DNA of 64,000 bases. Source: Rhodospirillales bacterium. GTDB taxonomy: Bacteria; Pseudomonadota; Alphaproteobacteria; CACIAM-22H2. Position numbers and translations under genes: made by a program. Shown in pieces: positions 7,700-21,246 of the stretch. Positions within the stretch are counted from its first letter, which is position 1. Each line of letters begins with the position of its first letter. The stretch is from NCBI GenBank assembly GCA_016794005.1, contig JAEUKY010000332.1:5029-69028 (forward strand). The letters are read 5' to 3'. The notes below the pieces were generated by a model. That model ran no database searches and was not told the DNA's origin. It saw only the letters and a list, made by a program, of their open reading frames with translations.

Positions 7700-7714
7700 G
7701 TTCAAATTCCGAAC
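7700..7714. promoter_or_regulatory. GTTC-N7-GAAC inverted repeat (GTTCaaattccGAAC); candidate operator
   Basis: Read directly. It is the second of three identically spaced GTTC-N7-GAAC sites within about 120 bp. Confidence 0.45.
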
Positions 7715-7718
7715 ACGA

Positions 7719-7750
7719 TTGACGTTCACCCAATGAACAGGGTATATACT
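7719..7750 (+). promoter_or_regulatory. Candidate sigma70-type promoter for the wHTH regulator (TTGACG-N18-TATATA), giving a near-leaderless transcript
   Basis: TTGACG lies at 7719-7724 and TATATA at 7743-7748. The ATG at 7759 has no Shine-Dalgarno-like sequence in between. The third GTTC-N7-GAAC site (7724-7738) overlaps the -35 element and spacer. Confidence 0.4.
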
Positions 7751-7758
7751 CAATTTCG

Positions 7759-8436: not shown

Positions 8437-8936
8437 GCGGCTGGTTCGTCGTCCATACCCAGCCTTCTTCGGAACTGAGGGCGGAGGCCAATCTCCGCCG
8501 CCAGGGCTACGAGACCTATCTGCCCCTATACCGGCGGCGTCGCTCGCACGCCCGGCGCATCGAATTCGTCGATCGGCCGCTGTTTCCCCGTTACCTATTC
8601 GTCCGCTTCGATCCGTCGGCCGACCGCTGGCGCCCGATCCTCGGAACGTTCGGTGTCTGCGGGCTGGTGCGGTTCGGTGACGTTCCGGTCCCGGTTCCGG
8701 CAGGGATCGTCGATGCCCTGCGCGCCAGCGAAGCGGCGCGGACGTTCGACGATCCGGTCTCGCCGATGCGCAATCTCGGCGTCGGCGCGCAGGTCCGCGT
8801 CATCGCTGGCCCCTTTGCCGATCTGGTCGGCAAGTTCAAGGCTCTCGCAGACATGGAGCGGGTCGTCGTCCTGCTCGACCTGCTGGGGCGCGAAGTATCC
8901 GTCCGTCTGTCCGAGAGGGCGGTCGCGGTGGCCTAG
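8433..8936 (+). CDS. NusG-paralog transcription antiterminator (RfaH/NusG-SP-like)
   Basis: The GTG start overlaps the upstream TGA (GTGA). The N-terminus is NGN-like (WFVVHTQPSSELRAEANLRRQGYETYLPL...RPLFPRYLFVRF) and the C-terminus is KOW-like (GAQVRVIAGPFADLVGKF). Length is 167 aa. Confidence 0.7.
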   Translation: MSGWFVVHTQPSSELRAEANLRRQGYETYLPLYRRRRSHARRIEFVDRPLFPRYLFVRFDPSADRWRPILGTFGVCGLVRFGDVPVPVPAGIVDALRASEAARTFDDPVSPMRNLGVGAQVRVIAGPFADLVGKFKALADMERVVVLLDLLGREVSVRLSERAVAVA

Positions 8937-9007
8937 GCCGCCGGCCCCGAAAGGGCGGGCGTTTCGCGAAGATATCGAAAAGCCGGGCGACATGCGGTCA
9001 CCCGGAG

Positions 9008-9019
9008 TGCGGTAGCCTG
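9008..9019 (+). promoter_or_regulatory. ops-like element TGCGGTAGCCTG (10/12 match to enterobacterial GGCGGTAGCGTG) in the operon leader
   Basis: It sits on the sense strand, about 70 nt after the RfaH-like stop and about 50 nt before the GTG start at 9073. Positional support only; a chance match is not excluded. Confidence 0.4.
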
Positions 9020-9072
9020 CCCGGATTTCGCCAGCAGATCCGCTTCACGTCAGAACGGAAAGTCCCGTCCAG

Positions 9073-10197
9073 GTGCAGTTCATCGACCTTCAGTCCCAGC
9101 GCGCGCGTCTGGGTACCGCTCTCGAGGACGCGATCCTGCGCGTCGTGCGCAGCGGCCAGTACATTCTCGGTCCCGAAGTCGCCACGCTCGAGCGTCAACT
9201 CGAAGCATTCTGCGGTGCGCGTCACGCGCTGACCGTCGCCAACGGCACCGATGCGCTTGCGCTCGCGTTGATGGCGTTCGGTGTGAAGGCCGGCGACGCC
9301 GTACTTGTCCCGTCGTTCACCTTCGCGGCGACCGGCGAAGTCGTCGTCTGGTTCGGCGCGACGCCGATCTTCGTCGACTGCCTGCCGGACACCTTCAACA
9401 TCGATCCGGCCAGCATCGAAGCGGGCATCGCGACCGCGAAGCGGCTCGGCCTGCGGCCCATCGGCGTCATCCCGGTCGATCTTTTCGGACTGCCGGCGGA
9501 TTACGACGCGATCGAAGCGATCTGCGCTGCGAACGCCATGTGGATTCTTGCCGATACCGCGCAGGGCTTCGGTGCTACCTACAAGGGACGGCGCACCGGC
9601 TCGATCGGACGGGTCGCGGCGACGTCGTTCTTTCCGGCGAAGCCGCTCGGCTGCTACGGCGACGGCGGCGCCATCTTCTTCGAAGACGATGCGCTGCTCG
9701 AACCACTCCTCTCGCTCCGCGTGCACGGCCAGGGCGTCGATCGCTATGACAACGTCCGGATCGGCATGAACGGCCGAATGGACACAATCCAGGCGGCCGT
9801 CCTGATCGAGAAGCTCAAGATCTTCCCGGACGAAATCGCCGCGCGCAACCGGATCGCGGAGCGCTATTCCGCAGCGCTTGAAAAGCACGTGATCGTTCCG
9901 CGCATACCGACCGGCCTGACGAGCGTCTGGGCCCAGTACACGATCCGCGTGCCTGACGGAAGGCGCGATGCGGTTGCCGCGAAACTCAAGGAGGCGGGTA
10001 TCCCGTCTGCGATCTACTACGTCAAGCCGATGCACAGGCAGACCGCGTACTCGGAATATCCGGTCGCCGCGAACGGGTTGCCGGTAAGCGACGTGCTCGC
10101 AGGCGAGGTGTTGAGCCTGCCGATGCATCCGTATCTGTCCGAAGCCGATCAGGATCGCATCGCGTCGACCGTGCGCGCGGCGCTCGAGGCGCGATAG
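9073..10197 (+). CDS. DegT/DnrJ/EryC1-family PLP-dependent sugar aminotransferase, WbpE-like
   Basis: MQFIDLQSQ...GQYILGPEVATLERQLEAFCGARHALTVANGTDAL and SFFPAKPLGCYGDGGAIF closely resemble WbpE-type 3-oxo-sugar aminotransferases. The start codon is GTG, with GGAAAG about 10 nt upstream. Confidence 0.85.
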   Translation: MQFIDLQSQRARLGTALEDAILRVVRSGQYILGPEVATLERQLEAFCGARHALTVANGTDALALALMAFGVKAGDAVLVPSFTFAATGEVVVWFGATPIFVDCLPDTFNIDPASIEAGIATAKRLGLRPIGVIPVDLFGLPADYDAIEAICAANAMWILADTAQGFGATYKGRRTGSIGRVAATSFFPAKPLGCYGDGGAIFFEDDALLEPLLSLRVHGQGVDRYDNVRIGMNGRMDTIQAAVLIEKLKIFPDEIAARNRIAERYSAALEKHVIVPRIPTGLTSVWAQYTIRVPDGRRDAVAAKLKEAGIPSAIYYVKPMHRQTAYSEYPVAANGLPVSDVLAGEVLSLPMHPYLSEADQDRIASTVRAALEAR

Positions 10198-10208
10198 GGA
10201 TCAACGCA

Positions 10209-11252
10209 ATGACCGCACTTACAAGGCCGTTCGACAAGCCGTTCCACGATCTGCGCGGCGCGTCGATCCTGATAACCGGCGGTACGGGTTCGTTCGGCCG
10301 CGCGTTCGTCGCGCGCCTACTCGCCCTTCCGACGCCGCCCGATCGTATCGTGATCTTCTCGCGCGACGAGCAGAAGCAGGAAACGATGGCGCGCGAATGG
10401 TCGGGGCGCCCCGACCTGTACGACCGCCTGCGCTTCTTCATCGGCGATGTCCGCGACGCCCAGCGGCTCGAACTCGCCATGCGCGGGGTCGACCACGTGG
10501 TCCACGCGGCGGCCCTCAAGATCGTGCCGATCGCCGAGTACAACCCGTTCGAATGCGTCCTCACGAATGTCCATGGTGCCGAGAACGTCGTCAAGGCGGC
10601 GCTGCGCAACCAGGTGCGCAAGGTGATCGCGCTGTCGACCGACAAGGCCGCCAATCCAGCCAATCTCTACGGTGCGACGAAGCTGGCGTCCGACAAGATC
10701 ATGGTCGCGGCGAACAATCTGTCCGGCGATCTGGGCACGCAGTTCTCGGTCGTCCGGTACGGCAACGTCATCGGCAGCCGCGGTTCCGTCGTGCCGCTCT
10801 TCCGCTCGCTGATCGCGTCGGGCGCCAAGAGCTTGCCGATCACCGACCCGCGCATGACGCGCTTCCTCATCACACTCGAGCAGGGTGTCGCGTTCGTGCT
10901 GTCCAGTTTCGGAACGATGCGGGGCGGCGAGATCTTCGTGCCGAGGATTCCGTCGATGAAGATGGTCGATCTGGCGCGCGCACTGGCCCCTGGTCTGCCG
11001 CACGAGAATGTCGGCATCCGTCCCGGCGAGAAGCTGCACGAAGTGATGATCACCGAGGACGATGCCCGCATGACGCTCTCATTGGGCGACCGCTTTGCGA
11101 TCTGCCCGGCAAACCGGAACTGGACCGATGCGCACCTGCGCGCGCTCGGTGGAATGCCGGTCGACGAAATGTTCCGCTATGGCTCGGACAACAACGACGA
11201 ATGGCTCGATGCGGCCGGCCTCCTCGCGATCGTCGGAGGGTCGAAACCTTGA
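10209..11252 (+). CDS. pseB: UDP-N-acetylglucosamine 4,6-dehydratase (inverting), PseB/FlaA1 type
   Basis: ILITGGTGSFG, FFIGDVRD, VVHAAALKIVPIAEYNPFECVLTNVHGAENV and STDKAANPANLYGATKLASDK are typical of PseB. Confidence 0.9.
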   Translation: MTALTRPFDKPFHDLRGASILITGGTGSFGRAFVARLLALPTPPDRIVIFSRDEQKQETMAREWSGRPDLYDRLRFFIGDVRDAQRLELAMRGVDHVVHAAALKIVPIAEYNPFECVLTNVHGAENVVKAALRNQVRKVIALSTDKAANPANLYGATKLASDKIMVAANNLSGDLGTQFSVVRYGNVIGSRGSVVPLFRSLIASGAKSLPITDPRMTRFLITLEQGVAFVLSSFGTMRGGEIFVPRIPSMKMVDLARALAPGLPHENVGIRPGEKLHEVMITEDDARMTLSLGDRFAICPANRNWTDAHLRALGGMPVDEMFRYGSDNNDEWLDAAGLLAIVGGSKP

Positions 11253-12433
11253 GTGCAGGCATCCTTCCCTACGGCCGGCAGACGATCGAGGACGACGACG
11301 TCGCGGCGATCGCGGCCGCGATGCGGGGCGACTTCCTCACGACCGGGCCGACCGTCGCGAAGTTCGAAGCCGCCTTCGCGACGGCGACCGGTGCGGCACA
11401 TGCCGTCGCGTCGAATTCCGGAACCGCAGCGCTCCATCTGGCGGCACTCGCTCTCGATCTCGGTCCCGGGGATGCGGCCATCGTTCCGAGCGTCACGTTC
11501 CTTGCGACCGCGAATGCGGTGCGCATGACGGGCGCCGACGTCGCGTTCGCCGATGTCGATCCAGAGACCGGCCTGCTGCGGCCGGCCGACATGCTCGATG
11601 CGCTTGCGCGCGCCCGCGCGCGCGGCTGGCGCGTGCGGGCAGCGTTCCCGGTCCATCTCAACGGCCGGATCTGCGACATGCCGGCCCTTGCCGAGGCCGC
11701 ACGGCCGCACGGCATGGCACTCGTCGAGGATGCGTGCCATGCGCTCGGTGCTGCCGATGTCGGGGCCTGCCGGCACTCCTTCGCCGCAGTGTTCTCGACC
11801 CATGCGGTCAAGGCGATCGCGACGGGCGAGGGTGGTGTCACGACGACGGCCGACCGGCAGGCCGCACGCAGGATGGCAGCGCTTCGCTCGCACGGCATGG
11901 AGCGTGACCCGACGGCTTTCGTCGACCGTGCGGCGGCCTTCGACGACAACGTGCCAAACCCCTGGTACTACGAGATGCCGGAAATCGGCTGGAACTACCG
12001 ACTTCCGGATGTGCTCTGCGCGCTGGGCCTGAGCCAGTTGCCTAAGCTCGCGCGCTTCCAGGCGCGCCGGCAAGCGATCGCGGCACTGTACGATCGGCTG
12101 CTGGCACCGCTCGCACCGATGCTGCGCCCGGTGCCGCGCGAAGGGGCGGCGCACGGCCTGCACCTCTTCGCCGTGCTCGTCGACTTCGCGGCACTCGGAA
12201 CCACGCGCCGCCGGTTCGTGGAAGCGCTGCGCGCGGACGGCATCGGCACGCAGGTCCATTACAAGCCCGTCCATACGCAGCCCTATTACGTCGAGCGCTA
12301 CGGCACGCTGACCCTGCCGGGTGCGGACGCATACTACGCGCGCTGTCTGTCGATCCCGTTCTATCCGACACTGTCGGACGCGGATGTCGAGCGCGTGGCC
12401 AACTCGCTCGCCCGGCTCGTGGCGGCCCGGTGA
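11249..12433 (+). CDS. pseC: UDP-4-amino-4,6-dideoxy-N-acetyl-beta-L-altrosamine transaminase, PseC type
   Basis: A TTG start overlaps the pseB TGA. ILPYGRQTIEDDDVAAI...LTTGPTVAKFEAAFA...SNSGTAALHLA...HAVKAIATGEGG follows the PseC N-terminal and Lys-region pattern. The upstream part of ORF 10397..12433 overlaps pseB and was trimmed. Confidence 0.85.
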   Translation: MSAGILPYGRQTIEDDDVAAIAAAMRGDFLTTGPTVAKFEAAFATATGAAHAVASNSGTAALHLAALALDLGPGDAAIVPSVTFLATANAVRMTGADVAFADVDPETGLLRPADMLDALARARARGWRVRAAFPVHLNGRICDMPALAEAARPHGMALVEDACHALGAADVGACRHSFAAVFSTHAVKAIATGEGGVTTTADRQAARRMAALRSHGMERDPTAFVDRAAAFDDNVPNPWYYEMPEIGWNYRLPDVLCALGLSQLPKLARFQARRQAIAALYDRLLAPLAPMLRPVPREGAAHGLHLFAVLVDFAALGTTRRRFVEALRADGIGTQVHYKPVHTQPYYVERYGTLTLPGADAYYARCLSIPFYPTLSDADVERVANSLARLVAAR

Positions 12434-13152
12434 AGACCGCCGTCGTCGTCCAGGCAAGGGTCGGGTCGAGCCGACTGCCCGGTAAGGTCCTGAAGCCGCT
12501 CGGTCCGAGAACCGTGCTGGAAGAAGTGCTGCGCCGCTGCGCCGCCGTGCCGGGTGCGGGCATCGTCGTCTGCGCGATACCCGACGGCGCCGCCGCCGAA
12601 CCCATAGCACGTCTCGCGCAGGCCGCCGGTGCTGTCGTCGTGCGTGGTCCTGAAGCCGACGTGCGCGCGCGCTACTTGCTTGCGGCAGATGCCGTCGGTG
12701 CCGACATTGTCCTGCGCGTGACGTCCGACTGCCCGTTGATCGATCCGGAGCTTTGTGCGGCGGTCCTAGCGACGCGCGCGGCGGCGGGTGCCGATTACTG
12801 CGCCAACAACATGCCGCCGTCGTTCCCGCACGGACTCGACTGCGAGGCCTTCACGACGCCGGCACTGCGACGAGCGGTTGCGTCCGACGGATCCGATGAC
12901 GATCGCGAACACGTCACTCCGTGGCTGCGCCGTTCCGAAGGAATCTCGCGCGCAGCGCTCGTCGGTCCCGGCGGCGCGTTCGCCGGACAGCGCTGGACGC
13001 TTGACTGGCCCGAAGATCTCGATTTCCTGCGCGCCGCAGTCGATCTCGCCGGCGAACGCGATCACTTCGTCCCGTGGTTCGATCTCGCGGCGCGCCTCGC
13101 CGCACGCCCGGACCTGCTTGCGATCAATTCCGTGCGCCAGCAGGCGCGCTGA
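12430..13152 (+). CDS. SpsF/FlmC-type cytidylyltransferase-fold protein (candidate CMP-nonulosonate synthetase)
   Basis: The GTG start overlaps the pseC TGA. VVVQARVGSSRLPGKVLKPL and RVTSDCPLIDPE match the SpsF-like nucleotidyltransferase pattern. Confidence 0.7.
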   Translation: MKTAVVVQARVGSSRLPGKVLKPLGPRTVLEEVLRRCAAVPGAGIVVCAIPDGAAAEPIARLAQAAGAVVVRGPEADVRARYLLAADAVGADIVLRVTSDCPLIDPELCAAVLATRAAAGADYCANNMPPSFPHGLDCEAFTTPALRRAVASDGSDDDREHVTPWLRRSEGISRAALVGPGGAFAGQRWTLDWPEDLDFLRAAVDLAGERDHFVPWFDLAARLAARPDLLAINSVRQQAR

Positions 13153-13165
13153 TTTACGACTTTCC

Positions 13166-13171
13166 AAGGAG
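13166..13171 (+). promoter_or_regulatory. Consensus Shine-Dalgarno AAGGAG 8 nt upstream of the radical SAM gene start
   Basis: Read directly. It lies in the largest intergenic gap (27 nt) of the 23-gene run. Confidence 0.6.
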
Positions 13172-13179
13172 TCCACCCG

Positions 13180-14274
13180 ATGGCCAAACAAGCCGAATCT
13201 GAGTCCGCTGTGGTCGACACGCCCGATCGTCATGTGCCGGAATACATGGCCTCACACGGCCAGGAGACGGTCGAGCAGAAGCTGCTGCGCAACCAGGTGC
13301 CGAAGTTTGGACAGAAATTCGCAGACTATCGCGCGGAGTATTTGCGCAGCCTGAACTACGACAAGGAGGATTACGTCGCAGGCTTCCCGATCACCCTCAA
13401 CATCGAGCTGGTCAACCGCTGCAATCTCTCCTGTATCATGTGCTACACGATCAATCACAAGGGCGAGAAGCACACGCTGTCGCTCGATCAGATGCGAGGG
13501 ATGGCCAAAGAAATCAAGGCCCACAATCTTCCCGCGATGATCGTCGGGTTGGGTTCGGAAGCGCTGCTCTACAAGGATTTCAAGAACGTCCTCGACATCT
13601 GCCTCGAAGCGGGCGTGATGGACCTGATCCTGTACACCAACGGTGTGCTGCTGACGCGCGAAACGTCGGAGTACCTCGTCCGTTCCGGCATTTCGCGCAT
13701 CCACGTCTCTCTCGACGCCGCGACACCGGAAACCTACGTCAAGATTCGCGGTAAGCCGGAACTCGACCGCATCGAGAAGAATATCGAGACGTTTCTCGAA
13801 GTGCGCAAGTCGCTGGGCTCGGAGTTGCCGATTCTGCGCGTCGCGTTCTGCGTCCAAGCGGAAAACCTCCACGAGCGCGAGGCTTTCCGAAAGAAATGGG
13901 AAGGTAAGGCTGATCGCGTCGACTTCCAGCTCATGGCCCCCGAAAAGCACGTCGACGATGTCAAGAATGCGACGCCTGACCTCGCCAAGAAGGTCGGCTT
14001 TTTCCACAAGGAGCTGCTCGACAAGCCGTGGTGCTCGATGCCGTTCAACTCGCTCAGTGTCTGGGCGGACGGTGGAGTGACGCCGTGCTGCTCGTTCATG
14101 GGCAAGAACCTGACGCTCGGCAACATCAAGGAAAGCTCCCTCGAGGAGATCTGGCGCGGCGAGAAGATTGAAAAACTCCGCAACGAGTTCCGCACTGGGA
14201 AGCTGAATCCGTCGTGCGAGCTCTGCATCTCGGGTCGCGATCTCGACTCTTTCCGCAAGCAGCTCGAGGACTGA
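13180..14274 (+). CDS. Radical SAM enzyme with a C-terminal SPASM/twitch-like Cys-rich domain
   Basis: It has a CNLSCIMC (C-x3-C-x2-C) cluster motif after ITLNIELVNR. The C-terminal Cys cluster is WCSMPF...TPCCSF...NPSCELC. G+C is visibly lower than in neighbours (hand counts of 34/60 and 32/60 on lines 13441 and 13501). Confidence 0.85.
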   Translation: MAKQAESESAVVDTPDRHVPEYMASHGQETVEQKLLRNQVPKFGQKFADYRAEYLRSLNYDKEDYVAGFPITLNIELVNRCNLSCIMCYTINHKGEKHTLSLDQMRGMAKEIKAHNLPAMIVGLGSEALLYKDFKNVLDICLEAGVMDLILYTNGVLLTRETSEYLVRSGISRIHVSLDAATPETYVKIRGKPELDRIEKNIETFLEVRKSLGSELPILRVAFCVQAENLHEREAFRKKWEGKADRVDFQLMAPEKHVDDVKNATPDLAKKVGFFHKELLDKPWCSMPFNSLSVWADGGVTPCCSFMGKNLTLGNIKESSLEEIWRGEKIEKLRNEFRTGKLNPSCELCISGRDLDSFRKQLED

Positions 14275-14278
14275 CGCG

Positions 14279-15955
14279 TTGGATCTCGGTCGCGAAATCC
14301 TCCGGGTACGGCGCTTCGCGGGCGAGACGCTCGACCGTTTGCGCGCACTGGGGCCGGCCGCGCGTGCTCGCGCGGCGCGCGTGCAGCGCCTGCGCGATGC
14401 TGGTGACGGACTGATGCGTACACTGTCCGACGGCGCCGTACCCGGCGGCCGCGCGGCGGTCGCCGGGCGCGTGCTTGTGGACGGCACCTGGGACAACGCG
14501 AATTACTGGTTCCGCTTCGCCATGGTCCGCCGCGCGCTCGGCCTCTCTGGCGTCACGATGACCGGTCTCGTCGGCGCGTTCCGCCGTGGGGAAGTCGCTG
14601 CGACGTTCGAGCGTTTTGGCGTGGACGCGCGGATTGATCTGCAGGCGCTATCCCGCATTGAGCCACGCCACCGCACCGCCGCGCGTACGCTACTCGCGCG
14701 CGTGCGAACGGCCGAGGATATCCTGCGGGCCGAGCTTCCTGGTGGGATGCCTGGAGAAATCTTCTATGACGGCGTGTTGAAGCGGCAACGCCGTGGGACC
14801 GCCGATCTCGCCGATCCACTGCTTCCCGACCATGTCGCCGAACAGTTCGCGAGTATAGATGCCGCCGTCCGCGTCCTGGACGAAGTCCGGCCAGATCTCC
14901 TTCTGCTGACACACGGACTCAATTTCTCGTATGGATCGCTTGCATGGGAAGGTATCCGGCGCGGCATCCCGGTGCTGCTGCTCTATGGCGACTTCGGGAC
15001 GACGCGCTTCGTGCGCCTGTTCTCGCGTGGTGACCTGTTCGTCTTCCCGTCACGTCCGAGCCGAGCGGAACTTGCAGGTCTTGCACCGGCAACGCGCGTG
15101 GCGCTGGAGCGTGTGGGTGCCGAGCAGCTCGAGCTTCGCCGCCGCGGCAGGACGAACGATATCGGCGGGCGATACGCCTATCGCGCTGGCGGCAGCGCAC
15201 TGTCGAAGGCCGAGATATGTCGGCGCTACGGATGGGATCCGGCGAAGCCGATCGTGGGCGTCTATGCCTCGAACCCGTTCGATTATCCGCATTGCACGGG
15301 CATGTACCATTTTCGCGACTTCGTCGAATGGAACCGCGAGACGGTCGCCGCTGCGGCACGCAATCCGCATGCGAACTTCCTCTGCAAGCCGCACCCGATC
15401 GACCGCCGATACGGCCTCAAGTACGGGGAAGGTCTTGCCGATGCGGTGATGGCTGTCGCGTCGGCGCATGTCCGGTTGGCGGACGAGGCGTGGTCGGGTG
15501 CTGAGCTGATGCGCTGCCTCGACGGCGCGGTCACGCATCACGGCAGCGTCGGGTTCGAAGCCGCCGCGATGGGCATTCCGGTCATGACCACGGATTGCGC
15601 CTGGTACGACGAGGTCGGCTTCGTCGCGCGTCCGGCCAGCAAGGCCGCGTATCTCGACAAGCTCGCTAGCGAATGGTGGCGCGACTGGCCGACGCAGGAA
15701 GCGATCTCGCTCGCGAATCTTGCCGCTGGGCTTTATTACGGCGTGCCCGATTGGCAGGGGGGCTACATTTTCCGCGACGACTCGGATCAGGATGCGATCT
15801 ACGAGACGCTGCCAGCCTTCATCGCGGATCACGGGGTTGCGATCGAACGCGAGATCGCGACGATCCGCGACTGGTACGATGCGGCGCATCCGTTCTTCCA
15901 CATGTTCAAGATGTTTCGCAGCAGCGGCTTTGGCATCGGCAATGCGACGGATTGA
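14279..15955 (+). CDS. Hypothetical protein; putative GT-B HP-motif transferase (KpsS/KpsC capsule-synthesis-like)
   Basis: 558-aa ORF with a TTG start at 14279 (an ATG alternative lies at 14414). NFLCKPHPIDR (KPHP at 15386-15397) is followed by VTHHGSVGFEAAAMGIPVMTTDCAWYDEVGFV. This resembles the HP motif and nucleotide-binding helix of capsule ulosonic-acid transferases. Assignment is by eye. Confidence 0.4.
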   Translation: MDLGREILRVRRFAGETLDRLRALGPAARARAARVQRLRDAGDGLMRTLSDGAVPGGRAAVAGRVLVDGTWDNANYWFRFAMVRRALGLSGVTMTGLVGAFRRGEVAATFERFGVDARIDLQALSRIEPRHRTAARTLLARVRTAEDILRAELPGGMPGEIFYDGVLKRQRRGTADLADPLLPDHVAEQFASIDAAVRVLDEVRPDLLLLTHGLNFSYGSLAWEGIRRGIPVLLLYGDFGTTRFVRLFSRGDLFVFPSRPSRAELAGLAPATRVALERVGAEQLELRRRGRTNDIGGRYAYRAGGSALSKAEICRRYGWDPAKPIVGVYASNPFDYPHCTGMYHFRDFVEWNRETVAAAARNPHANFLCKPHPIDRRYGLKYGEGLADAVMAVASAHVRLADEAWSGAELMRCLDGAVTHHGSVGFEAAAMGIPVMTTDCAWYDEVGFVARPASKAAYLDKLASEWWRDWPTQEAISLANLAAGLYYGVPDWQGGYIFRDDSDQDAIYETLPAFIADHGVAIEREIATIRDWYDAAHPFFHMFKMFRSSGFGIGNATD

Positions 15956-15968
15956 GGCCGACACTGCG

Positions 15969-16976
15969 ATGATCCCCGCATCCGCCAGCATTGCCCGTCT
16001 CCATGGTCCGGGCGATCTTCGTTTCGAAGACGAAGCGCTGCCTGCCGCGCCGGGGACGGGAGAGATCCTTGCGCGGACGCTCTGGTCCACGATCTCGCCC
16101 GGGACGGAGCTTGCGGCGTTCCAGGGTCTGCCGCCCCTGCGGCCTGGCCGCGTCTACCCGCGCCTCGTCGGCTACTGCAACGTCGCAGAGATTCTCGCGA
16201 TCGGCGTTGGCGTCGAAAGGCTTGTACCGGGTATGCGCGTGTTGACATGGCAGAGCCATCGTAGCGCTTTCATCGTGCCGGTCGCGGACGTACTGGCCAT
16301 CCTGCCGCCGGATGCTGATGCACGCGCAGCCAGTGCGGCCTATCTTTTCCATCTTGGTCTCGATGCCGTCCACCGGACCGGCATATCGCTTGGCCACAGG
16401 GTCGCGGTGCTTGGGATGGGGGTGCTCGGGCTTGGCGCTGCGGCGATGGCAGCACGGGCGGGCGCCGATGTTTCCGCGATCACCGCACGGCCGGAGATCG
16501 CAGGGATTGCGCGCGCGATGGGTGCCTGTGCCGTCGTCGGACCGGACGAAGCCGTCGCCGCGGCGCAGGCGACGGATGTCGGCGGTTTCGACAATGTCGT
16601 TTCGACGAGCAACCGGTGGCCGGACTGGGAGCTCGCCTTGCGTCTGGCGCGCAAAGGCGGAACGGTTTCTGTTCTCGGGTTTCCCGGCAGGGGCGAGCCG
16701 CCGTCGCCGTCCAATCCGCTTGCCTCGCAGTATTTCTACGACAAGCAGCTTCGCCTCGTCGCCTGCGGTCAGCCGGTCGAGCGCGATGCGCCGCCGGACG
16801 AGATTCGGTTCACGCTCAAACGCAACATGGCGGATATCGTCGGGCGCATCGCGCGCGGCGACCTGCCGGCCGGCCGCCTACTGACGGGCGAGTATCCCGC
16901 CGCGTCGCTTGCCGACGCATATCGGGCCCTTGCAGCGCGCCGCCCCGGCGACGTGACCTCCGTGCTCGCATGGTGA
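15969..16976 (+). CDS. Medium-chain dehydrogenase/reductase (zinc-type alcohol dehydrogenase-like) family oxidoreductase
   Basis: ISPGTELAAF, GYCNVAEIL and the Rossmann motif VAVLGMGVLGLGAAAMA are present. The start is taken at ATG 15969 (GAGG about 11 nt upstream). ATG 15942, which overlaps the upstream gene, is also possible. Confidence 0.6.
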   Translation: MIPASASIARLHGPGDLRFEDEALPAAPGTGEILARTLWSTISPGTELAAFQGLPPLRPGRVYPRLVGYCNVAEILAIGVGVERLVPGMRVLTWQSHRSAFIVPVADVLAILPPDADARAASAAYLFHLGLDAVHRTGISLGHRVAVLGMGVLGLGAAAMAARAGADVSAITARPEIAGIARAMGACAVVGPDEAVAAAQATDVGGFDNVVSTSNRWPDWELALRLARKGGTVSVLGFPGRGEPPSPSNPLASQYFYDKQLRLVACGQPVERDAPPDEIRFTLKRNMADIVGRIARGDLPAGRLLTGEYPAASLADAYRALAARRPGDVTSVLAW

Positions 16977-18052
16977 ATGCCGGATTGACGGCGGTCGTCG
17001 TCGGCTGCGGGGCCATGGGTGCATTCACGCGGCCTGGCACGCGCAGCGCGCTGCCACCGGGCTGGCTACCGCTCGCACACGCCGAAGCCGTCGTCGCGAC
17101 ACCCGGCCTCGTACTCATCGGCGTATGCGACAGCGATGCCGCCGTGTGCGAACGGGCATCGGCGCATTACGGCGTACCGGCCTTCGCCGACCACCGGGCG
17201 ATGCTGGCAGAACTGCGGCCTGCGATCGCATGCGTGGCGACGCGCACCGAGCCGCGGGTACGGACGCTCGTCGATTGTGCGAAGGCGGGCGTCAGGGGCA
17301 TGCATGCCGAGAAGCCGCTCAGCCGCTCGATGGAAGATGCACGGTGCGTCGCTGCGGCACTTGTGCAGGCAGGTGCTTCGTTCACCTACGGCGCGCTTCG
17401 TCGCTACCATGCAACCTATCTGCGCGCGGCGGCTCTGGTCGCCGACGGCGCCATCGGCGATCTGCGACAAATCGTCGTCGGGTTCGGGCGCCGGACAGCG
17501 ATGTGGACGCATGCACACTCGCTCGACGCGATGCTGTTCTTCGCCGGTGCGCCGGTGCGCATCGTGCAGGCGCGGATCGCCGTCGATCCCGGGTCCGTCT
17601 GCGAGACCGACGGCATTCCGACGATCGATGCCGATCCGACAATCGAGACCGGCTATGTCGCCTTCGAGAACGGCGTGAGCGGCCAGATCACGCAGCTTGA
17701 CGGATTCGACATCCTGCTTGCCGGCAGCTCCGGCACGCTGCGGATCGCGGCTGACGGCACGCGGATCGATCTTGACCGGACAGGCCCATCGACTGGGGGC
17801 TATTTCACCGCTACGACGAGCGAACCGGCCCTCTCGAGTCAACCGGGCGGAACGGCGCTTGCGCTTGGCCGGCTGTGCGGTTTCGTCGCGTCCGGCAAGC
17901 CGGACCAGACCGCACTCGATGCCGCAGTCGATGGCCAGCGCGCATTGTTCGCGATGCTTCTTTCGGGTTTGCGTGGCGGAATCGAGGTCGCACCCGGCGA
18001 CGTTCCCGACACGATGACCGTTACCGGACGGTCCGGCAACCTGTTCGCGTGA
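16970..18052 (+). CDS. Gfo/Idh/MocA family NAD(P)-dependent sugar oxidoreductase
   Basis: The ATG overlaps the upstream stop (ATGGTGA). It has the N-terminal Rossmann motif AVVVGCGAMGAF and the MHAEKPLS (EKP) motif. The upstream part of ORF 16616..18052 was trimmed. Confidence 0.7.
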   Translation: MVNAGLTAVVVGCGAMGAFTRPGTRSALPPGWLPLAHAEAVVATPGLVLIGVCDSDAAVCERASAHYGVPAFADHRAMLAELRPAIACVATRTEPRVRTLVDCAKAGVRGMHAEKPLSRSMEDARCVAAALVQAGASFTYGALRRYHATYLRAAALVADGAIGDLRQIVVGFGRRTAMWTHAHSLDAMLFFAGAPVRIVQARIAVDPGSVCETDGIPTIDADPTIETGYVAFENGVSGQITQLDGFDILLAGSSGTLRIAADGTRIDLDRTGPSTGGYFTATTSEPALSSQPGGTALALGRLCGFVASGKPDQTALDAAVDGQRALFAMLLSGLRGGIEVAPGDVPDTMTVTGRSGNLFA

Positions 18053-18068
18053 AGGACCGGCAGTACCG

Positions 18069-19478
18069 ATGAGCGTGACGCTCCATTGCGACGCAGGCCC
18101 GGGGATCGGGCTCGGGCACGTGTTGCGCAGTGCCGCACTCGGGGCGGAGTTCGTCCGCACCGGACGTCGTGCGCGCTTGCGCGTGCCGGTCGGTGCGGCG
18201 GTCGGTGTGCCCGATCGAGTGCGGCGTGTCCTACCTGTCGAAGAAGAGGGAATCCCCGCGCCAGCTACCGATATAGCAGTCATCGATTCCTACCGACCGA
18301 CGATGCACACGGTCGACGGGAAGGCGCGTCTGATCGCACTCCACGACGGAGATGGACCCTTGCCAGTCGCTGGCTTTCTGGTGAATGCCGCTGCCACCGA
18401 AAGCGACTATGCCAGCCGTACGACGGCTTCGTGCCGGCTTCTTCTCGGACCCCGCTACGCGTCAGTCGACGCAGCATTCGCCATCCGGCGTGCCGGAGCT
18501 CTGGCCGCGCGCACTTCGTGCGAGGTGCGAAGGGTCCTCGTTTCGTTCGGCGGCGACGATGCGGCCAACGCCACCGGACGCTCGCTCGACGCGCTCGAGG
18601 GGCGATCGGTCGAGATCGACGTCGCGCTCGGATCGGGCGCACGTCACGTTCGCGATATCGCCGCCCGCGCTTCGGCGCGCGTTCGTGTTCATATCGATAC
18701 GCCCGAGATGCCCGCCTTGATGGCGGATGCGGACATCGCGGTCGGAGCGGCTGGTTCGACGGCATGGGAGCGTTGCACTTTGGGACTGCCGACATTGATC
18801 GCGCGCCTTGCGGCAAACCAGAATGGCGTTGCGGACATGCTCGTTGGCGCCGGTGCCGCGGCCGACATCCGGTCGGTCGATGCCGGCTTCGAAACGCGTC
18901 TTGCCGCGGCATTCGACCGCGTGGCAGGAGATCGCGCGCTGCTGGTCTCGATGGCGGCGCAGGCGGCCGCCCTGTGCGATGGGCGCGGGACCAAGCGGAT
19001 CGTTCTTGCCGCCGTCGGCGACGAGACGGATCGGATGGGCCGCCGGATCCGCTTGCGTGCCGTCGAAGCCGCCGATGCGGCGTGGTTTCTCAATCTCCAG
19101 TCGCGGCCGGAGACACGCCGCTACGCACGCAATCCGGCCGTTCCGACGCCCGACGAACATCGGCTGTGGTTTGCGCGGATGCTCGCCAACGCCGCACATA
19201 CGCTGGCGGTAGTCGAGTGTGCGGACGTTCCGGCGGGCTTCGTGCGTCTCGATCCGACTTCTGCGGAAGAGATGCGCTTTGAAGTCTCGATCGCCGTTGA
19301 TCCGGCGTTTCACGGCAAGGGCGTCGGTTCGACCGCATTGCGACTGACGCGCGCCTGCGCGCGCGATGCGGTGCTGGAAGCCGAAGTGCATGAAGACAAT
19401 CGCGCATCCCGAGCGCTGTTCGCAGGCTGCGGCTACCGACCCACCGGGCCGGGCCGCCTGGAAAGCAGGCCCACATGA
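18069..19478 (+). CDS. pseG: Bifunctional PseG (UDP-2,4-diacetamido-2,4,6-trideoxy-beta-L-altropyranose hydrolase) / GNAT N-acetyltransferase (PseH-like) fusion
   Basis: The N-terminus VTLHCDAGPGIGLGHVLRSAALGAEF is PseG-like. The C-terminal ~150 aa (IRLRAVEAADAAWFLNLQ...VDPAFHGKGVGSTAL...NRASRALFAGCGY) are GNAT-like. Confidence 0.8.
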   Translation: MSVTLHCDAGPGIGLGHVLRSAALGAEFVRTGRRARLRVPVGAAVGVPDRVRRVLPVEEEGIPAPATDIAVIDSYRPTMHTVDGKARLIALHDGDGPLPVAGFLVNAAATESDYASRTTASCRLLLGPRYASVDAAFAIRRAGALAARTSCEVRRVLVSFGGDDAANATGRSLDALEGRSVEIDVALGSGARHVRDIAARASARVRVHIDTPEMPALMADADIAVGAAGSTAWERCTLGLPTLIARLAANQNGVADMLVGAGAAADIRSVDAGFETRLAAAFDRVAGDRALLVSMAAQAAALCDGRGTKRIVLAAVGDETDRMGRRIRLRAVEAADAAWFLNLQSRPETRRYARNPAVPTPDEHRLWFARMLANAAHTLAVVECADVPAGFVRLDPTSAEEMRFEVSIAVDPAFHGKGVGSTALRLTRACARDAVLEAEVHEDNRASRALFAGCGYRPTGPGRLESRPT

Positions 19479-20518
19479 CCTTCGCCATCAATGGACGCCG
19501 GATCGGCCCCGAGGCGCCGCCCTACGTCATCGCCGAGCTTTCGGGCAACCACAACGGTTCGCTCGACCGCGCGATCGCTCTGCTCGATGCGGCGCACGAG
19601 GCGGGTGCGGACGCGGTCAAGCTGCAGACTTATACCGCCGACACGCTGACGATCGATCATGACGGACCCGATTTCACCGTGCGCGGTGGCTTGTGGGACG
19701 GATCCACGCTCTACCAGCTCTACCGTCAGGCCCATACGCCGTGGGAATGGCACGAAGCGCTGTTCGCGCGCGGGCGCGAACTCGGCATCACCGTATTCTC
19801 GACGCCGTTCGATGCGACCGCGATCGATCTGCTCGAGCGTCTCGGGGCACCGGCCTACAAGATCGCTTCGTTCGAGGCCGTCGACCTTCCGCTCATCCGC
19901 CGCGTCGCATGCTGCGGCAAGCCGATGATCGTCTCGACCGGAATCAGCGACCTCGCCGAGATCGCCGCTGCGGTCGAAGCAGCCCGCAGCGCAGGCGCCA
20001 CTGATCTGGCGCTGCTGCATTGCGTGAGCGCCTATCCAGCACCACCAGAAGACATGAATCTGCGGACAATAGCGCATCTCGGTGCGACATTTGGCGCCGT
20101 GCCGGGCCTTTCGGACCATACGCTGGGCACGGCGGTCACCGTCGCGGCGGTGGCGCTGGGTGCCTGCGTGATCGAGAAGCACGTCACGCTTCGCAGGGCC
20201 GACGGCGGACCGGATTCCGCATTCTCGCTCGAACCCGAAGAATTCGCAGCACTGGTACGCGACGTGCGGACGGCGCACGCGGCCCTGGGGCGCGTCTCCT
20301 ATGAGCGCGAGCCCAGCGAACGCGGCATGGCGACGTTCCGACGTTCGCTCTATGCGATCGCCGACATCGCGGCAGGCGAGATTCTCACGGAAGCGAATGT
20401 CCGCTCGATCCGTCCGGGTTTTGGCCTGGCGCCCAAGCACTTCGACGCGGTTGTCGGCCGGCGCGCACGCCGGTCGATCGCGCGCGGGACCGCACTCGCG
20501 TGGAGCCTGATCGAGTGA
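19475..20518 (+). CDS. pseI: Pseudaminic acid synthase
   Basis: The start overlaps the upstream stop (ATGA). YVIAELSGNHNGSLDRAIALLDAAHEAGADAVKLQTYTADTLT, KIASFE and LLHCVSAYPAPPEDMNLRTI are typical of PseI/NeuB-family synthases. Confidence 0.9.
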   Translation: MTFAINGRRIGPEAPPYVIAELSGNHNGSLDRAIALLDAAHEAGADAVKLQTYTADTLTIDHDGPDFTVRGGLWDGSTLYQLYRQAHTPWEWHEALFARGRELGITVFSTPFDATAIDLLERLGAPAYKIASFEAVDLPLIRRVACCGKPMIVSTGISDLAEIAAAVEAARSAGATDLALLHCVSAYPAPPEDMNLRTIAHLGATFGAVPGLSDHTLGTAVTVAAVALGACVIEKHVTLRRADGGPDSAFSLEPEEFAALVRDVRTAHAALGRVSYEREPSERGMATFRRSLYAIADIAAGEILTEANVRSIRPGFGLAPKHFDAVVGRRARRSIARGTALAWSLIE

Positions 20519-21246
20519 AGACGGTCGCGACCATCGAGGCGCGCATGACCTCCATGCGGTTGCCCGGCAAGGTGCTCGCCGACGCCGAGGGCGCTCCGAT
20601 GCTCTCGCGGATGATCGACCGACTCTTCCGCGTATCCGGACTCGACGGCGTTGTCGTCGCGACGACGACGAACGCAACCGATGATCCCATCGCCGCTCTC
20701 GCGTCGGAAAAGGGTGTCGGATGCTGGCGCGGCAGCGAGGACGATGTTCTCTCGCGCGTCCTCGAAGCGGCCACGGATGCCGGAGCCGACGTCATCGTCG
20801 AACTGACGGGCGACTGTCCGCTGATCGATCCGGCGATCGTGTCGCAGACGATACGCCACTACTTCTCGACGGGCGCAGATTATGTCTCGAATGTGCTGAC
20901 GCGCAGCTATCCGATCGGCATGGACACGCAGGTATTCTCGCGTCGCATCCTTGCGGACGTGGCAAGTCGTACCGATGATGCGATTGACCATGAGCATGTG
21001 AGCCTTTACATCTACCGCCATCCGGAAATCTACAGCCTTTCCGGCATTGTGGCACCCGCCGGGCTCCACCGTCCTGATGTCCGGCTCACGCTCGATACAC
21101 CCGAAGATCTGGCACTGATCCGCGCCGTGTTTGCGGCTCTGTTGCCACGCGGGATCGATTTCGGCCTTGCCGAGATACTCGCATATCTTGACGCCAATCC
21201 GGTGGTCGCCGCGCTCAACCGGAGCGTGGTGCATCGTCATGTCTGA
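20515..21246 (+). CDS. SpsF/FlmC-type cytidylyltransferase-fold protein, second copy
   Basis: The GTG start overlaps the pseI TGA. ATIEARMTSMRLPGKVL and ELTGDCPLIDPA parallel the gene at 12430. Confidence 0.7.
   Translation: MKTVATIEARMTSMRLPGKVLADAEGAPMLSRMIDRLFRVSGLDGVVVATTTNATDDPIAALASEKGVGCWRGSEDDVLSRVLEAATDAGADVIVELTGDCPLIDPAIVSQTIRHYFSTGADYVSNVLTRSYPIGMDTQVFSRRILADVASRTDDAIDHEHVSLYIYRHPEIYSLSGIVAPAGLHRPDVRLTLDTPEDLALIRAVFAALLPRGIDFGLAEILAYLDANPVVAALNRSVVHRHV

Follow-up and report, generated by a model that had tools for sequence, protein, structure and literature searches.

A twitch-type radical SAM protein from nonulosonate gene clusters and its probable role in modifying nine-carbon sugars

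In the genome of a Rhodospirillales bacterium, a predicted operon for pseudaminic acid (Pse) synthesis includes a gene for a radical SAM protein (rSAM). Because its relatives, which span many bacterial phyla, sit mostly in nonulosonate gene clusters, rSAM probably modifies these sialic-acid-like nine-carbon sugars by radical chemistry that has yet to be described. The gene (13180..14274, + strand) is part of the 64,000-nucleotide stretch of DNA that we analyzed (the window), and it encodes a 364-amino-acid enzyme of the twitch type, as judged from Pfam and from a profile of its family. On balance, we favor the view that rSAM represents a family of widespread twitch enzymes that are dedicated to nonulosonic-acid (Pse/Leg-type) glycan pathways, and, jointly with this, that the gene is an integral and vertically co-inherited part of the Pse operon, not an inserted cassette. 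As to its role, we lean modestly towards a dedicated sugar-tailoring enzyme that acts late and would be an epimerase or a dehydrogenase.

Radical SAM core, twitch domain, and N-terminal extension

By its domains, rSAM is a member of the radical SAM superfamily, with SAM cleavage as its putative activity. It matches Pfam's Radical_SAM model (PF04055) at 65.7 bits (cut-off 29.5) and Pfam's SPASM model at 56.1 bits (cut-off 21.5). The CX3CX2C motif for the radical SAM [4Fe-4S] cluster is C81/C85/C88 (CNLSCIMC, 13420..13443, + strand) and is invariant in the family (245/245 proteins). An earlier note on this DNA had picked out this motif along with three C-terminal cysteine strings, WCSMPF (C285), TPCCSF (C303 and C304), and SCELC (C346 and C349), and all of them are present in the translation. 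A 100% identical protein from a Rhodospirillales MAG is named "radical SAM protein." In NCBIfam, no model matched rSAM at or above its cut-off. The best match was TIGR04317 (101.8 bits vs. a cut-off of 380), and NF033640, which describes twitch proteins, scored 89.8 bits (cut-off 170). We also considered a radical SAM methylase and dropped it, as Pfam finds no B12-binding or HemN-like domain in rSAM.

The C-terminal domain (amino acids 285-349; 14032..14226, + strand) is, from its cysteines, a twitch domain with one putative auxiliary cluster, rather than a seven-cysteine SPASM domain. SPASM domains are defined by seven or eight conserved cysteines in the pattern CX9-15GX4C ... CX2CX5CX3C ... 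C, while twitch enzymes bind one auxiliary cluster via 3-4 cysteines (PMC9477430). In the rSAM family, just five C-terminal cysteines are conserved, as CX12GX4C and then CX2C, without CX5CX3C, and this count rules out a full SPASM domain with two auxiliary clusters. (The Pfam SPASM model gives about 56 bits despite the missing cysteines because it spans the part that is common to twitch domains.) The label "SPASM" in the earlier note is corrected to this extent: the auxiliary-cluster domain is there, but it is of the twitch type.

The four putative ligands (C285, C303, C346, and C349) are 98-100% conserved among the 245 family proteins. C304, an additional conserved cysteine, is present in 231 of the 245 (94%) and is substituted in 6%. 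In the AF2 model of rSAM (pLDDT 88.3), the twitch region has strands at 291-294 and 299-301, and then helices, which fits the beta-hairpin and helix that make up a twitch domain. When the family profile is aligned to BtrN, the four putative ligands match one-to-one with four cysteines of BtrN's twitch region, and C304 falls on a Phe. The BtrN counterparts are C169, C188, C232, and C235, which we take to be its auxiliary-cluster ligands (the printed numbering of chain 4m7t_A is offset from BtrN residue numbers by about 20).

At the other end of the protein, a helical extension (about amino acids 23-65; 13246..13374, + strand) appears to be specific to the family, given its conservation and the helices in the AF2 model (28-43, 45-58, and 60-63, plus one short strand). 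No Pfam domain matched this extension. Its residues Y50 and R51 are found in 242 and 241 of the 245 family proteins, respectively (at least 98%). Most homologs with less than 31% identity align only from about residue 44-75, while those in L048, L064, and L074 extend further towards the N terminus.

The Pse operon

The operon around rSAM is predicted to encode all six canonical Pse functions (PseB, C, H, G, I, and F). The genes discussed next are all on the + strand. The run opens with DegT1 (9073..10197), an extra DegT-family aminotransferase (350.6 bits for the Pfam model; 214 bits for the PseC model, which is below that model's cut-off of 423.5). Next are PseB, the inverting UDP-GlcNAc 4,6-dehydratase (10209..11252; TIGR03589, 486 bits, cut-off 407.75), and the aminotransferase PseC (11249..12433, if translation begins at the TTG at 11249; TIGR03588, 441.2 bits, cut-off 423.5). 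Directly upstream of rSAM is the first of two cytidylyltransferases (12430..13152; CTP_transf_3, 67.7 bits in Pfam), whose start overlaps the stop of PseC by 4 nt and which has an equal position in two related MAGs (loci L001 and L004).

Just 4 nt downstream of rSAM is the gene for a KpsC/KpsS-like (Capsule_synth) protein of 558 amino acids (14279..15955; PF05159, 21.1 bits, cut-off 20). This protein matches KpsC weakly, across the HP-motif region, and it is a candidate for a CMP-ulosonate-dependent transferase. A Capsule_synth-like gene lies immediately 3' of rSAM in the window and in L001, L002, L004, L005, and L025.

Further downstream are a Zn-dependent alcohol-dehydrogenase-like oxidoreductase (15969..16976; ADH_zinc_N, 46.7 bits), a GFO/IDH/MocA oxidoreductase (16970..18052, with an uncertain start at 16970-17015; PF01408, 44.4 bits), and a PseG-like hydrolase that is fused to a GNAT (PseH-like) acetyltransferase (18069..19478). 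The fusion protein scores 138 bits against TIGR03590, just below the cut-off of 153.55, and 66 bits against Acetyltransf_3 at amino acids 326-457. PseI, the pseudaminic acid synthase (19475..20518), belongs to the NeuB family (TIGR03586, 498.7 bits, cut-off 340.25; NeuB and SAF domains in Pfam). It is followed by the second cytidylyltransferase, which is the candidate PseF (20500..21246; CTP_transf_3, 94 bits), a second GFO/IDH/MocA oxidoreductase (21239-22234), and DegT3, the third DegT aminotransferase (22231-23556). L001 also has the GFO and DegT pair after NeuB and CTP_transf_3. The two GFO proteins and the Zn-dependent dehydrogenase, which are NAD-dependent, could cover redox or epimerization steps, and this speaks against dedicated tailoring by rSAM.

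The earlier note had placed a radical SAM protein with a C-terminal auxiliary-cluster domain in a genuine Pse operon, and this holds up, given the Pfam domains and given that PseB, PseC, and PseI all score higher than the cut-offs of their NCBIfam equivalog models. No canonical Pse step needs radical chemistry, so rSAM would be an add-on tailoring step.

Upstream of the operon are an AsnB-type amidotransferase (5644-7677, - strand), a MarR-EPS regulator (7759-8436, + strand), a NusG paralog (8283-8936, + strand), and Wzy_C, GT4, and SGNH genes (99-5630). These genes mark the locus as one of the polysaccharide type rather than flagellar.

Relatives of rSAM and their neighbors

In a library of proteins clustered at 50% identity, 4,598 cluster representatives matched with E ≤ 1e-30. 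We examined nonulosonate context in the ~50 closest loci and in three representatives further away, of which two had informative surroundings. (The third, P0170, lies on a short contig with no context information.) A NeuB homolog was within 10 kb of rSAM in 32 of the 46 loci with at least 31% identity, vs. 0 of 34 loci below 31% (P = 2e-11, Fisher exact test, which takes no account of phylogenetic relatedness among the loci). Of 47 loci, 43 had one or more nonulosonate markers. Within 10 kb in L017, L040, L041, and L043, where rSAM is at 32-45% identity, there were no nonulosonate genes. Homologs below 31% identity, which we used only as a negative control, have mixed contexts (other radical SAMs, DUF2064, NUDIX, and methyltransferases). 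Both of the informative distant representatives are in CTP_transf_3/epimerase sugar clusters, and neither has NeuB; more distant family members in general are found among CTP_transf_3, DegT, epimerase, and Kdo-transferase-like genes.

The orthologs come from Rhodospirillales, Pelagibacteraceae (SAR11), Patescibacteria, Planctomycetota, Rhodocyclaceae, and Clostridia (Firmicutes). Their adjoining genes are repeatedly CTP_transf_3, Capsule_synth-like, or Maf, and in about 12 Rhodospirillales loci, rSAM and a flagellin gene lie side by side and point away from each other. The family occurs both in Pse-type clusters (with PseB) and in clusters that lack PseB, so a single common substrate is not obvious. 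Other neighbors vary across loci (a WbpG-like amidotransferase, an AMP-ligase with an ACP, or DegT), so a role early in the pathway or on the N-acyl group might fit as well.

We also looked to domain fusions for clues to function. Most of the long matches were uninformative and were set aside: P0153, P0168, P0179, P0186, P0192, P0228, and P0257 consist of radical SAM/SPASM repeats in tandem, and the N-terminus of P0183 is without annotation. Only P0105, a DegT-rSAM fusion from the MAG of a Nanoarchaeota (a DPANN archaeon), is suggestive.

We propose that the nonulosonate-cluster-associated twitch family be recognized by at least 31% identity over the full length, including the N-terminal helix region with Y-R, by the PCC motif, and by a NeuB-type cluster nearby. 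The protein from the window has all of these features.

A proposed reaction

In our proposal, the CX3CX2C cluster would cleave SAM to give a 5'-deoxyadenosyl radical, and this radical would attack the nine-carbon sugar at a carbon with a hydroxyl group and remove a hydrogen from that carbon. The likeliest substrate would be the finished or CMP-activated nonulosonate. In the epimerase route, which we slightly favor, the hydrogen would be returned to the opposite face from Cys304, the conserved cysteine that is not a ligand, and the auxiliary cluster would re-reduce the thiyl radical, as in HygY, NeoN, and EpeE. In the dehydrogenase route, the substrate radical would instead be oxidized to a ketone via the auxiliary cluster, as in BtrN. 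The product would then pass to the adjacent CMP-ulosonate-type transferase, which would be the KpsC/S-like protein of 558 amino acids here and Maf in flagellar loci.

Each of the specific activities is individually improbable. An epimerase is the most plausible of them; a dehydrogenase is rather doubtful, and we view other radical chemistry on the pathway sugar or its N-acyl group in the same way. That rSAM is not a sugar enzyme at all seems quite unlikely. As a tentative extension, which we consider plausible but below an even bet, the enzyme might carry out a previously unrecognized, oxygen-independent tailoring step, in which the nonulosonate, once complete or linked to CMP, is altered just ahead of its transfer by Maf or a KpsC/S-like transferase. 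The product would be a stereoisomer of Pse/Leg, or a keto or amino derivative, to which no enzyme has yet been assigned.

C304 could have the role of the hydrogen donor in HygY and NeoN, two radical SAM carbohydrate epimerases from hygromycin B and neomycin biosynthesis, respectively. In each of them, the hydrogen that is abstracted from a carbon of the sugar is given back by an essential cysteine that is not a cluster ligand. We liken rSAM to these enzymes by description, and their substrates are aminoglycosides, which differ from nine-carbon ulosonic acids. Reportedly, going by the title of a paper, HygY is a twitch epimerase that becomes a dehydrogenase when one cysteine is mutated. In NeoN, the H-atom donor is Cys249 (PMC10991966). 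The peptide epimerase EpeE (or YydG) also uses a non-ligand cysteine, Cys223, to donate the H atom, and the thiyl radical that this leaves is proposed to be reduced again by the auxiliary cluster (PMC13012085). The twitch domain of EpeE is of an extended kind and has a single auxiliary cluster (PDB 8AI1-8AI6), and the enzyme resembles rSAM according to Foldseek (E ~2e-8). However, EpeE acts on a peptide and has a dedicated precursor gene, and its sequence similarity to rSAM is confined to the radical SAM core. Other structures that resemble the AF2 model of rSAM in Foldseek are SkfB, SuiB, DesII, BlsE, BtrN, MoaA, and anSME.

Alternatives with other sugar chemistry

BtrN, the 2-deoxy-scyllo-inosamine dehydrogenase of butirosin biosynthesis (PDB 4M7T/4M7S), is the best match in the PDB for the family profile (E = 1.3e-17, through the twitch domain), and this makes the earlier note's comparison to BtrN an apt one. 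Like rSAM, BtrN has a radical SAM core and then a twitch domain (Foldseek TM of 0.67-0.73, normalized on BtrN), and its substrate is an amino-sugar-like small molecule. On the other hand, BtrN is just 16-17% identical to rSAM, lacks the N-terminal helical extension of about 65 amino acids, has Phe where the family has C304, and belongs to aminoglycoside synthesis instead of nonulosonate synthesis. We rejected the idea that rSAM is an ortholog of BtrN, given the low identity, the extra N-terminal domain, and the Pse gene neighbors.

Of the alternatives to our preferred reading, the one that survives best, though we doubt it, is that rSAM works as a BtrN-type dehydrogenase together with an aminotransferase. 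A secondary alcohol of a pathway sugar would be converted to a ketone and then aminated by DegT1, by DegT3, or by an Aminotran_3 enzyme. The logic of BtrN and BtrS in 2-deoxystreptamine synthesis offers a parallel. Besides the match to BtrN's twitch cysteines, this idea would account for the three DegT genes in the operon, as Pse needs only one. A DegT gene directly precedes rSAM in L026, L029, L038, and L046, the two form one protein in P0105, and Aminotran_3, which occurs in six family loci, adjoins a distant member in L084. But in the loci from Patescibacteria and Firmicutes, the upstream DegT comes after PseB, so it is probably the canonical PseC, and many flagellar loci have one aminotransferase or none inside 10 kb. 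Also, the conserved C304 better suits a hydrogen donor, and the operon already encodes NAD-dependent oxidoreductases of the GFO and Zn-ADH types.

It is less likely still, and we think it improbable, that rSAM is a radical lyase that resembles DesII and acts early. The product of PseC (a UDP-4-amino-4,6-dideoxy-hexose) would be deaminated or rearranged to make a second sugar, not a nonulosonate, that is aminated by the extra DegT. The synthesis of desosamine by DesI, DesII, and DesV is a parallel for this. Both DesII (TDP-4-amino-4,6-dideoxyglucose deaminase) and BlsE are radical SAM enzymes that act on nucleotide sugars, and DesII is among the best structural matches for rSAM (E ~1e-10 for both). 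DesII follows a DegT-type 4-aminotransferase, as rSAM does in several loci. Furthermore, the gene order PseB-PseC-rSAM and the DegT-rSAM fusion favor an early role, and DegT1 and PseC have weak matches to the DesI model. Yet HMMER finds similarity between the rSAM family and BtrN and none between the family and DesII, and we know of no twitch auxiliary cluster in DesII. Members of the family are also found in clusters without PseB, far from any DegT, and beside Maf and flagellin. Finally, in the established Pse pathway, an enzyme that took away the amino group at C4 would leave PseI without the precursor it requires.

Base composition and the question of horizontal transfer

The earlier note proposed that the rSAM gene was a horizontally acquired cassette, as it has low G+C content and its own Shine-Dalgarno sequence. 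These observations were accurate. The hand counts of G+C are exact (34/60 at 13441, 32/60 at 13501, 45/60 at 12421, and 44/60 at 14401), and for the whole gene, G+C is 0.579, vs. a mean of 0.662 for the other 47 genes in the window (standard deviation 0.030; z = -2.83), which is the lowest of the 48 genes. Recounting also confirmed that the 27-nt spacer (13153-13179) and its perfect AAGGAG (13166..13171, + strand; 8 nt 5' of the ATG) are unique in the run. The spacer is the longest gap between DegT1 and DegT3, where the remaining gaps are -19 to +16 nt, and no other gene in that run has a full AAGGAG within 20 nt upstream of its likely start. A scan for promoters and terminators across 7600-24600 found nothing above chance near the rSAM gene.

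The conclusion that was drawn from these features does not stand, and recent transfer of the gene into the Pse block is largely refuted. The deficit is at codon positions 1 and 2 (G+C of 0.58 and 0.36; z = -2.5 and -3.6), while GC3 is 0.803, vs. a mean of 0.794 (z = +0.2), and the divergence in synonymous codons is ordinary (12 of 47 genes are more deviant). The low G+C at the first two positions arises because the protein is rich in K, E, and N and poor in A, R, and G (lysine is 8.2%, vs. 1.9%). The deficit, and GC2 of 0.35-0.43, recur in 37 of 46 orthologous loci, irrespective of the host, so low G+C is a family-wide trait that results from amino-acid composition. In both of the related MAGs, the gene order around rSAM is identical, and rSAM has diverged about as much as its neighbors (79% identity to L004, where flanking genes are at 64-84%, and 73% to L001, where flanking genes are at 55-83%). 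The spacer and the Shine-Dalgarno sequence are conserved in both as well (CAAGGAG in L004 and GAGGGAG in L001). Two other observations could be taken to favor transfer: the lysine-rich protein could be a relic of an old donor with low G+C, and the ortholog in L042 (Oscillospiraceae) looks foreign, with GC3 of 0.49 vs. 0.83 for its NeuB. Overall, we consider a recent cassette very unlikely. More broadly, when scanning genomes, a dip in the G+C of a whole gene along with normal GC3 reflects the composition of the protein and not a foreign origin.

Peptide or protein maturation

The least likely alternative is that rSAM, like most SPASM/twitch enzymes, modifies a protein or peptide, such as a RiPP precursor, flagellin, or a neighboring enzyme. 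It is true that the RiPP maturases SkfB and SuiB are the best matches in the PDB for the single sequence and in Foldseek, that the top NCBIfam matches are metalloenzyme maturases (far under their cut-offs), and that rSAM adjoins flagellin in those Rhodospirillales loci. But although SkfB and SuiB share the overall fold of rSAM, the TM is only about 0.5, and they have peptide-recognition domains and precursor peptides, while the context of rSAM is sugar biosynthesis. In the window, the gaps on either side of rSAM are 27 and 4 nt, which leaves no room for a precursor gene beside it. The earlier note had raised the prospect of a peptide-maturase subfamily with a precursor peptide; when we scanned 47 loci for small ORFs within 2.5 kb, none was conserved across clades, and the only shared ones (20-89 amino acids) were shadows of flagellin genes in one clade. 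Also, Pelagibacteraceae and Patescibacteria have rSAM, as do polysaccharide loci that are not flagellar, and the association with nonulosonate genes is lost below 31% identity, where contexts are heterogeneous.

Radical chemistry in nonulosonate synthesis

Flagella, capsules, and LPS carry nonulosonic acids (Pse, Leg, and their epimers), and these sugars shape motility, immune recognition, and susceptibility to phage. To our knowledge, all known steps in their synthesis rely on NAD(P), PLP, acetyl-CoA, PEP, or CTP chemistry. The earlier note's statement that no such radical SAM enzyme had been characterized agrees with the lack of an NCBIfam model at its cut-off and with our literature searches, which turned up no characterized example. 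We did not find "radical SAM" together with "nonulosonic" in the literature searched. A few papers mention radical SAM along with flagellin glycosylation, legionaminic acid, or pseudaminic acid, but they are unrelated, as judged by title and abstract or by the passage itself: in a paper on Plesiomonas, the matching passage concerns HutW, and in a paper on Campylobacter, it only lists two radical SAM genes of C. fetus that are phase-variable.

If rSAM does catalyze a dedicated step, then it would be a new type of reaction in nonulosonate synthesis and the first radical SAM enzyme of the pathway. It could then explain stereoisomers or derivatives that have no assigned enzyme, and would hint at uncharted diversity in surface sugars. 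The carriers in the loci that we examined include abundant uncultured lineages (SAR11, Patescibacteria, and a DPANN archaeon). If rSAM acts as a late tailoring enzyme, then this step would be common among Patescibacteria and among marine Alphaproteobacteria, SAR11 included.

The gene and its operon

The radical SAM gene (13180-14274, + strand) encodes 364 amino acids, with Pfam matches to Radical_SAM at amino acids 75-208 (65.7 bits) and to the SPASM model at amino acids 285-349 (56.1 bits). The cysteine strings quoted in the earlier note are all present in the translation: CNLSCIMC (C81, C85, and C88) and, near the C terminus, WCSMPF (C285), TPCCSF (C303 and C304), and SCELC (C346 and C349). 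The earlier note assigned the protein to the radical SAM/SPASM class. It is a radical SAM protein with a C-terminal set of cysteines, but a full SPASM domain requires seven or eight cysteines, while a twitch domain requires three or four (PMC9477430). Only five C-terminal cysteines are invariant across 34 aligned homologues, which is too few for a full SPASM domain, so we consider the C-terminal domain to be a twitch domain. Among 245 family proteins, C285, C303, C346, and C349 are conserved at 98-100% and C304 at 94%. The family's hallmark is an N-terminal helical extension of about 65 amino acids with an almost invariant Y50-R51.

The best match to the family profile in the PDB is BtrN (E = 1.3e-17). 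C285, C303, C346, and C349 align with four cysteines of BtrN's twitch region, probably C169, C188, C232, and C235; at the position of C304, BtrN has phenylalanine. Confidence in the AF2 model is high (pLDDT 88.3, pTM 0.88), and its top Foldseek matches are SkfB, SuiB, DesII, BlsE, BtrN, MoaA, anSME, and EpeE (for BtrN, TM 0.67-0.73 on the target). The comparison to BtrN in the earlier note was apt: by analogy, the protein may work like the small group of carbohydrate-tailoring twitch radical SAM enzymes that comprises BtrN and, presumably, HygY and SpeY. It is not an orthologue of BtrN, nor, probably, of HygY or SpeY. It is just 16-17% identical to BtrN and differs from it by the extra N-terminal domain, the PCC motif, and the pathway.

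In the surrounding operon (9073-23556), PseB (486 bits), PseC (441 bits), and PseI (499 bits) exceed the NCBIfam equivalog cut-offs. The pathway is completed by two CTP_transf_3 genes and a single 469-amino-acid ORF (18069-19478) that fuses a PseG-like hydrolase (138 bits, just below the cut-off) to a PseH-like GNAT acetyltransferase. The operon exceeds the needs of pseudaminic acid synthesis: besides the two CTP_transf_3 genes, it has three DegT aminotransferases (two of them surplus), two GFO/IDH/MocA oxidoreductases, a Zn-ADH-like oxidoreductase, and the radical SAM gene, which is directly followed by a 558-amino-acid Capsule_synth (KpsC/S)-like protein. This surplus suggests that the product is a nonulosonate with additional modifications, or that a second amino sugar is made. 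A block of NeuB followed by CTP_transf_3, GFO, and DegT is shared with the homologous locus L001.

Upstream of the operon are an AsnB-type amidotransferase, a MarR-family EPS-associated regulator, a NusG paralogue, a GT4 glycosyltransferase, Wzy_C proteins, and SGNH/GDSL acylhydrolases. The locus is of the polysaccharide type, not flagellar. The regulator and the NusG paralogue (7759-8936) lie directly upstream, and the pair also occurs in L001 and L004; the NusG paralogue is possibly an operon-specific antiterminator.

Low G+C content and the case against recent transfer

The earlier note's hand counts of G+C (34, 32, 45, and 44 per 60) are exact, and among the window's 48 probable genes its G+C content, 0.579, is indeed the lowest (mean 0.662, sd 0.030, z = -2.83). 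Separately, the right-hand end of the window (59700-64000) reaches 0.70-0.75, versus an average of 0.66. A 27-nt spacer (13153-13179) precedes the gene, with a Shine-Dalgarno AAGGAG at 13166-13171, 8 nt before the ATG. Both are unique in the run from the first DegT gene (9073-10197) to the third (22231-23556), as had been noted: at the remaining junctions the genes overlap by up to 19 nt or are separated by at most 16 nt, and the full AAGGAG is absent from the 20 nt before the start of every other gene.

These features had been read as signs of a horizontally acquired cassette, and a recent insertion is not supported. Relative to the 47 other genes, the dip is limited to codon positions 1 (0.578, z = -2.5) and 2 (0.356, z = -3.6), while GC3 is native (0.803 versus a mean of 0.794, z = +0.2). 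Synonymous codon usage, which the earlier note proposed to check, is ordinary (12 of 47 genes are more deviant). The dip is caused by amino-acid composition: the protein is rich in K (8.2 vs. 1.9% for the other genes), E (9.3 vs. 4.9%), and N (4.7 vs. 2.2%) and poor in A (6.0 vs. 14.2%) and R (5.8 vs. 9.5%). This is a family trait. Orthologues have lower G+C than their own locus in 37 of 46 loci, and their GC2 is 0.35-0.43 in nearly all hosts with locus G+C of at least 0.54 (the exceptions are L021, L034, L040, L041, and L043, at 0.45-0.53, and L044, at 0.30).

Gene order is also kept in two related MAGs, L004 (Tagaea sp.) and L001. The radical SAM proteins are 79% and 73% identical to ours, and their neighbours are 64-84% and 55-83% identical, with PseGH as the outlier in both (32-33%). 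The spacer and Shine-Dalgarno sequence are kept as well (CAAGGAG in L004, GAGGGAG in L001), so the strong ribosome binding site belongs to the gene's conserved expression signals. Data from one window bear on a recent insertion of this gene, not on older transfer of the whole cluster. In an Oscillospiraceae MAG (L042:10001-10900), the orthologue looks foreign (GC3 of 0.49 vs. 0.83 for the adjacent NeuB), so the family may move horizontally in some lineages.

Association with nonulosonate clusters

In a 90%-clustered collection, about 180 proteins, mostly from alphaproteobacterial MAGs, matched at E ≤ 1e-10; the window's own protein is named merely "radical SAM protein". At a threshold of E ≤ 1e-30, an exhaustive profile search found 4,598 cluster representatives. 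Among the hosts are Rhodospirillales, Pelagibacteraceae, Patescibacteria, Planctomycetota, Rhodocyclaceae, and Clostridia.

Scanning genomes chosen as species representatives gave 78 loci. We used tblastn with the window's Pse proteins to find neighbours within 10 kb, and split distinct loci at 31% identity of the radical SAM protein. A NeuB-family gene was present at 32 of 46 loci with at least 31% identity and at 0 of 34 below (P = 2e-11, although the loci are phylogenetically non-independent). Several NeuB-negative loci sit on truncated contigs, and if any nonulosonate marker is counted, 43 of 47 loci are positive. Clustering the ORFs of 47 loci identified as neighbours NeuB (31 loci), CTP_transf_3 (23), AsnB-type amidotransferase (21), DegT (20), Maf (19), flagellin (17), PseB (14), and Capsule_synth-like and WbpG-like amidotransferase genes (10 each). 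More distant family representatives also lie among CTP_transf_3, DegT, Aminotran_3, epimerase, and Kdo-transferase-like genes; homologues below 31% identity had no such nonulosonate-type neighbours. The association is tight.

The earlier note knew of no characterised example, and this holds: no NCBIfam model reached its cut-off (the best scored 101.8 bits vs. 380), and no paper in the literature searched joined "radical SAM" with "nonulosonic". The papers in that literature that mention radical SAM together with flagellin glycosylation, pseudaminic acid, or legionaminic acid do not concern such an enzyme. In Campylobacter fetus, CFT03427_1545 and CFT03427_1558 are radical SAM genes of the "MoaA/NifB/PqqE/SkfB family"; both are phase-variable and are listed with methyltransferase, SDR, and formyltransferase genes (PMC6321876), and they could be relatives in a cultured organism. 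We interpret the proteins found here as a family, large and unannotated, of predicted sugar-tailoring twitch radical SAM enzymes that is specific to nonulosonate clusters. The family is a well-defined and experimentally tractable lead to new chemistry on bacterial sialic-acid-like sugars.

Possible reactions

The enzyme would abstract hydrogen from a pathway sugar. Directly beside its gene, loci repeatedly carry a cytidylyltransferase gene and the gene of a CMP-ulosonate-consuming transferase, a pattern that would place the enzyme late in the pathway, acting on the sugar once it is complete or CMP-activated. The order CTP_transf_3, radical SAM, KpsC/S-like is found in the window, L001, and L004; a KpsC/S-like gene also follows in L002, L005, and L025; Maf adjoins in several flagellar loci; and in L082 the order is CTP_transf_3, radical SAM, Kdo-transferase-like.

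Epimerisation is a tentative first choice. C304, a well-conserved non-ligand cysteine beside a cluster ligand, would fit the hydrogen-atom donor of radical SAM epimerases, and this slightly favours epimerisation over BtrN-like oxidation. A single cysteine mutation reportedly turns HygY into a dehydrogenase. The donor is Cys249 in NeoN (PMC10991966) and Cys223 in EpeE, where the auxiliary cluster has been proposed to return the thiyl radical to its reduced state (PMC13012085). Oxidation, a somewhat less probable reading, would suit the operon's surplus aminotransferases. A DesII-like reaction on the PseC product is unlikely; in its favour, DegT genes adjoin the radical SAM gene, and in P0105, a partial protein from a Nanoarchaeota MAG, a full-length radical SAM protein carries the C terminus of a DegT aminotransferase as an in-frame fusion (the sole informative fusion found). 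Chemistry on an N-acyl substituent is possible, given the neighbouring WbpG-like genes and the AMP-ligase, ACP, and KAS III genes. A polypeptide substrate is quite improbable: the gaps flanking the gene are too short for a precursor peptide, and the clades share no conserved small ORF, which goes against the peptide-maturase alternative raised in the earlier note.

In the Rhodospirillales flagellar islands L009, L011, L014, L019, L033, and L047, extra genes lie downstream of the radical SAM gene, before NeuB: AMP-ligase, an ACP-like ORF, KAS III-like, SDR, MBL-fold, Antibiotic_NAT acyltransferase, and DUF4910. Together these genes resemble a module that gives the nonulosonate an unusual N-acyl group. 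Two other islands for flagellar glycosylation (L015 and L018, Thalassospiraceae and Rhodospirillales MAGs) each have two twitch radical SAM copies, on opposite strands with an AMP-ligase gene between them. In several nonulosonate-type clusters (L016:1771-3339, L039, and L082:960-2321), the twitch enzyme adjoins a second, unrelated radical enzyme with B12-binding and Radical_SAM domains, which is the architecture of class B methylases. Finally, P0153, P0179, P0186, and P0236 are giant proteins (1,100-1,900 amino acids) in which three or four radical SAM/SPASM units related to those of this family stand in tandem; a B12-binding domain is present in one as well.
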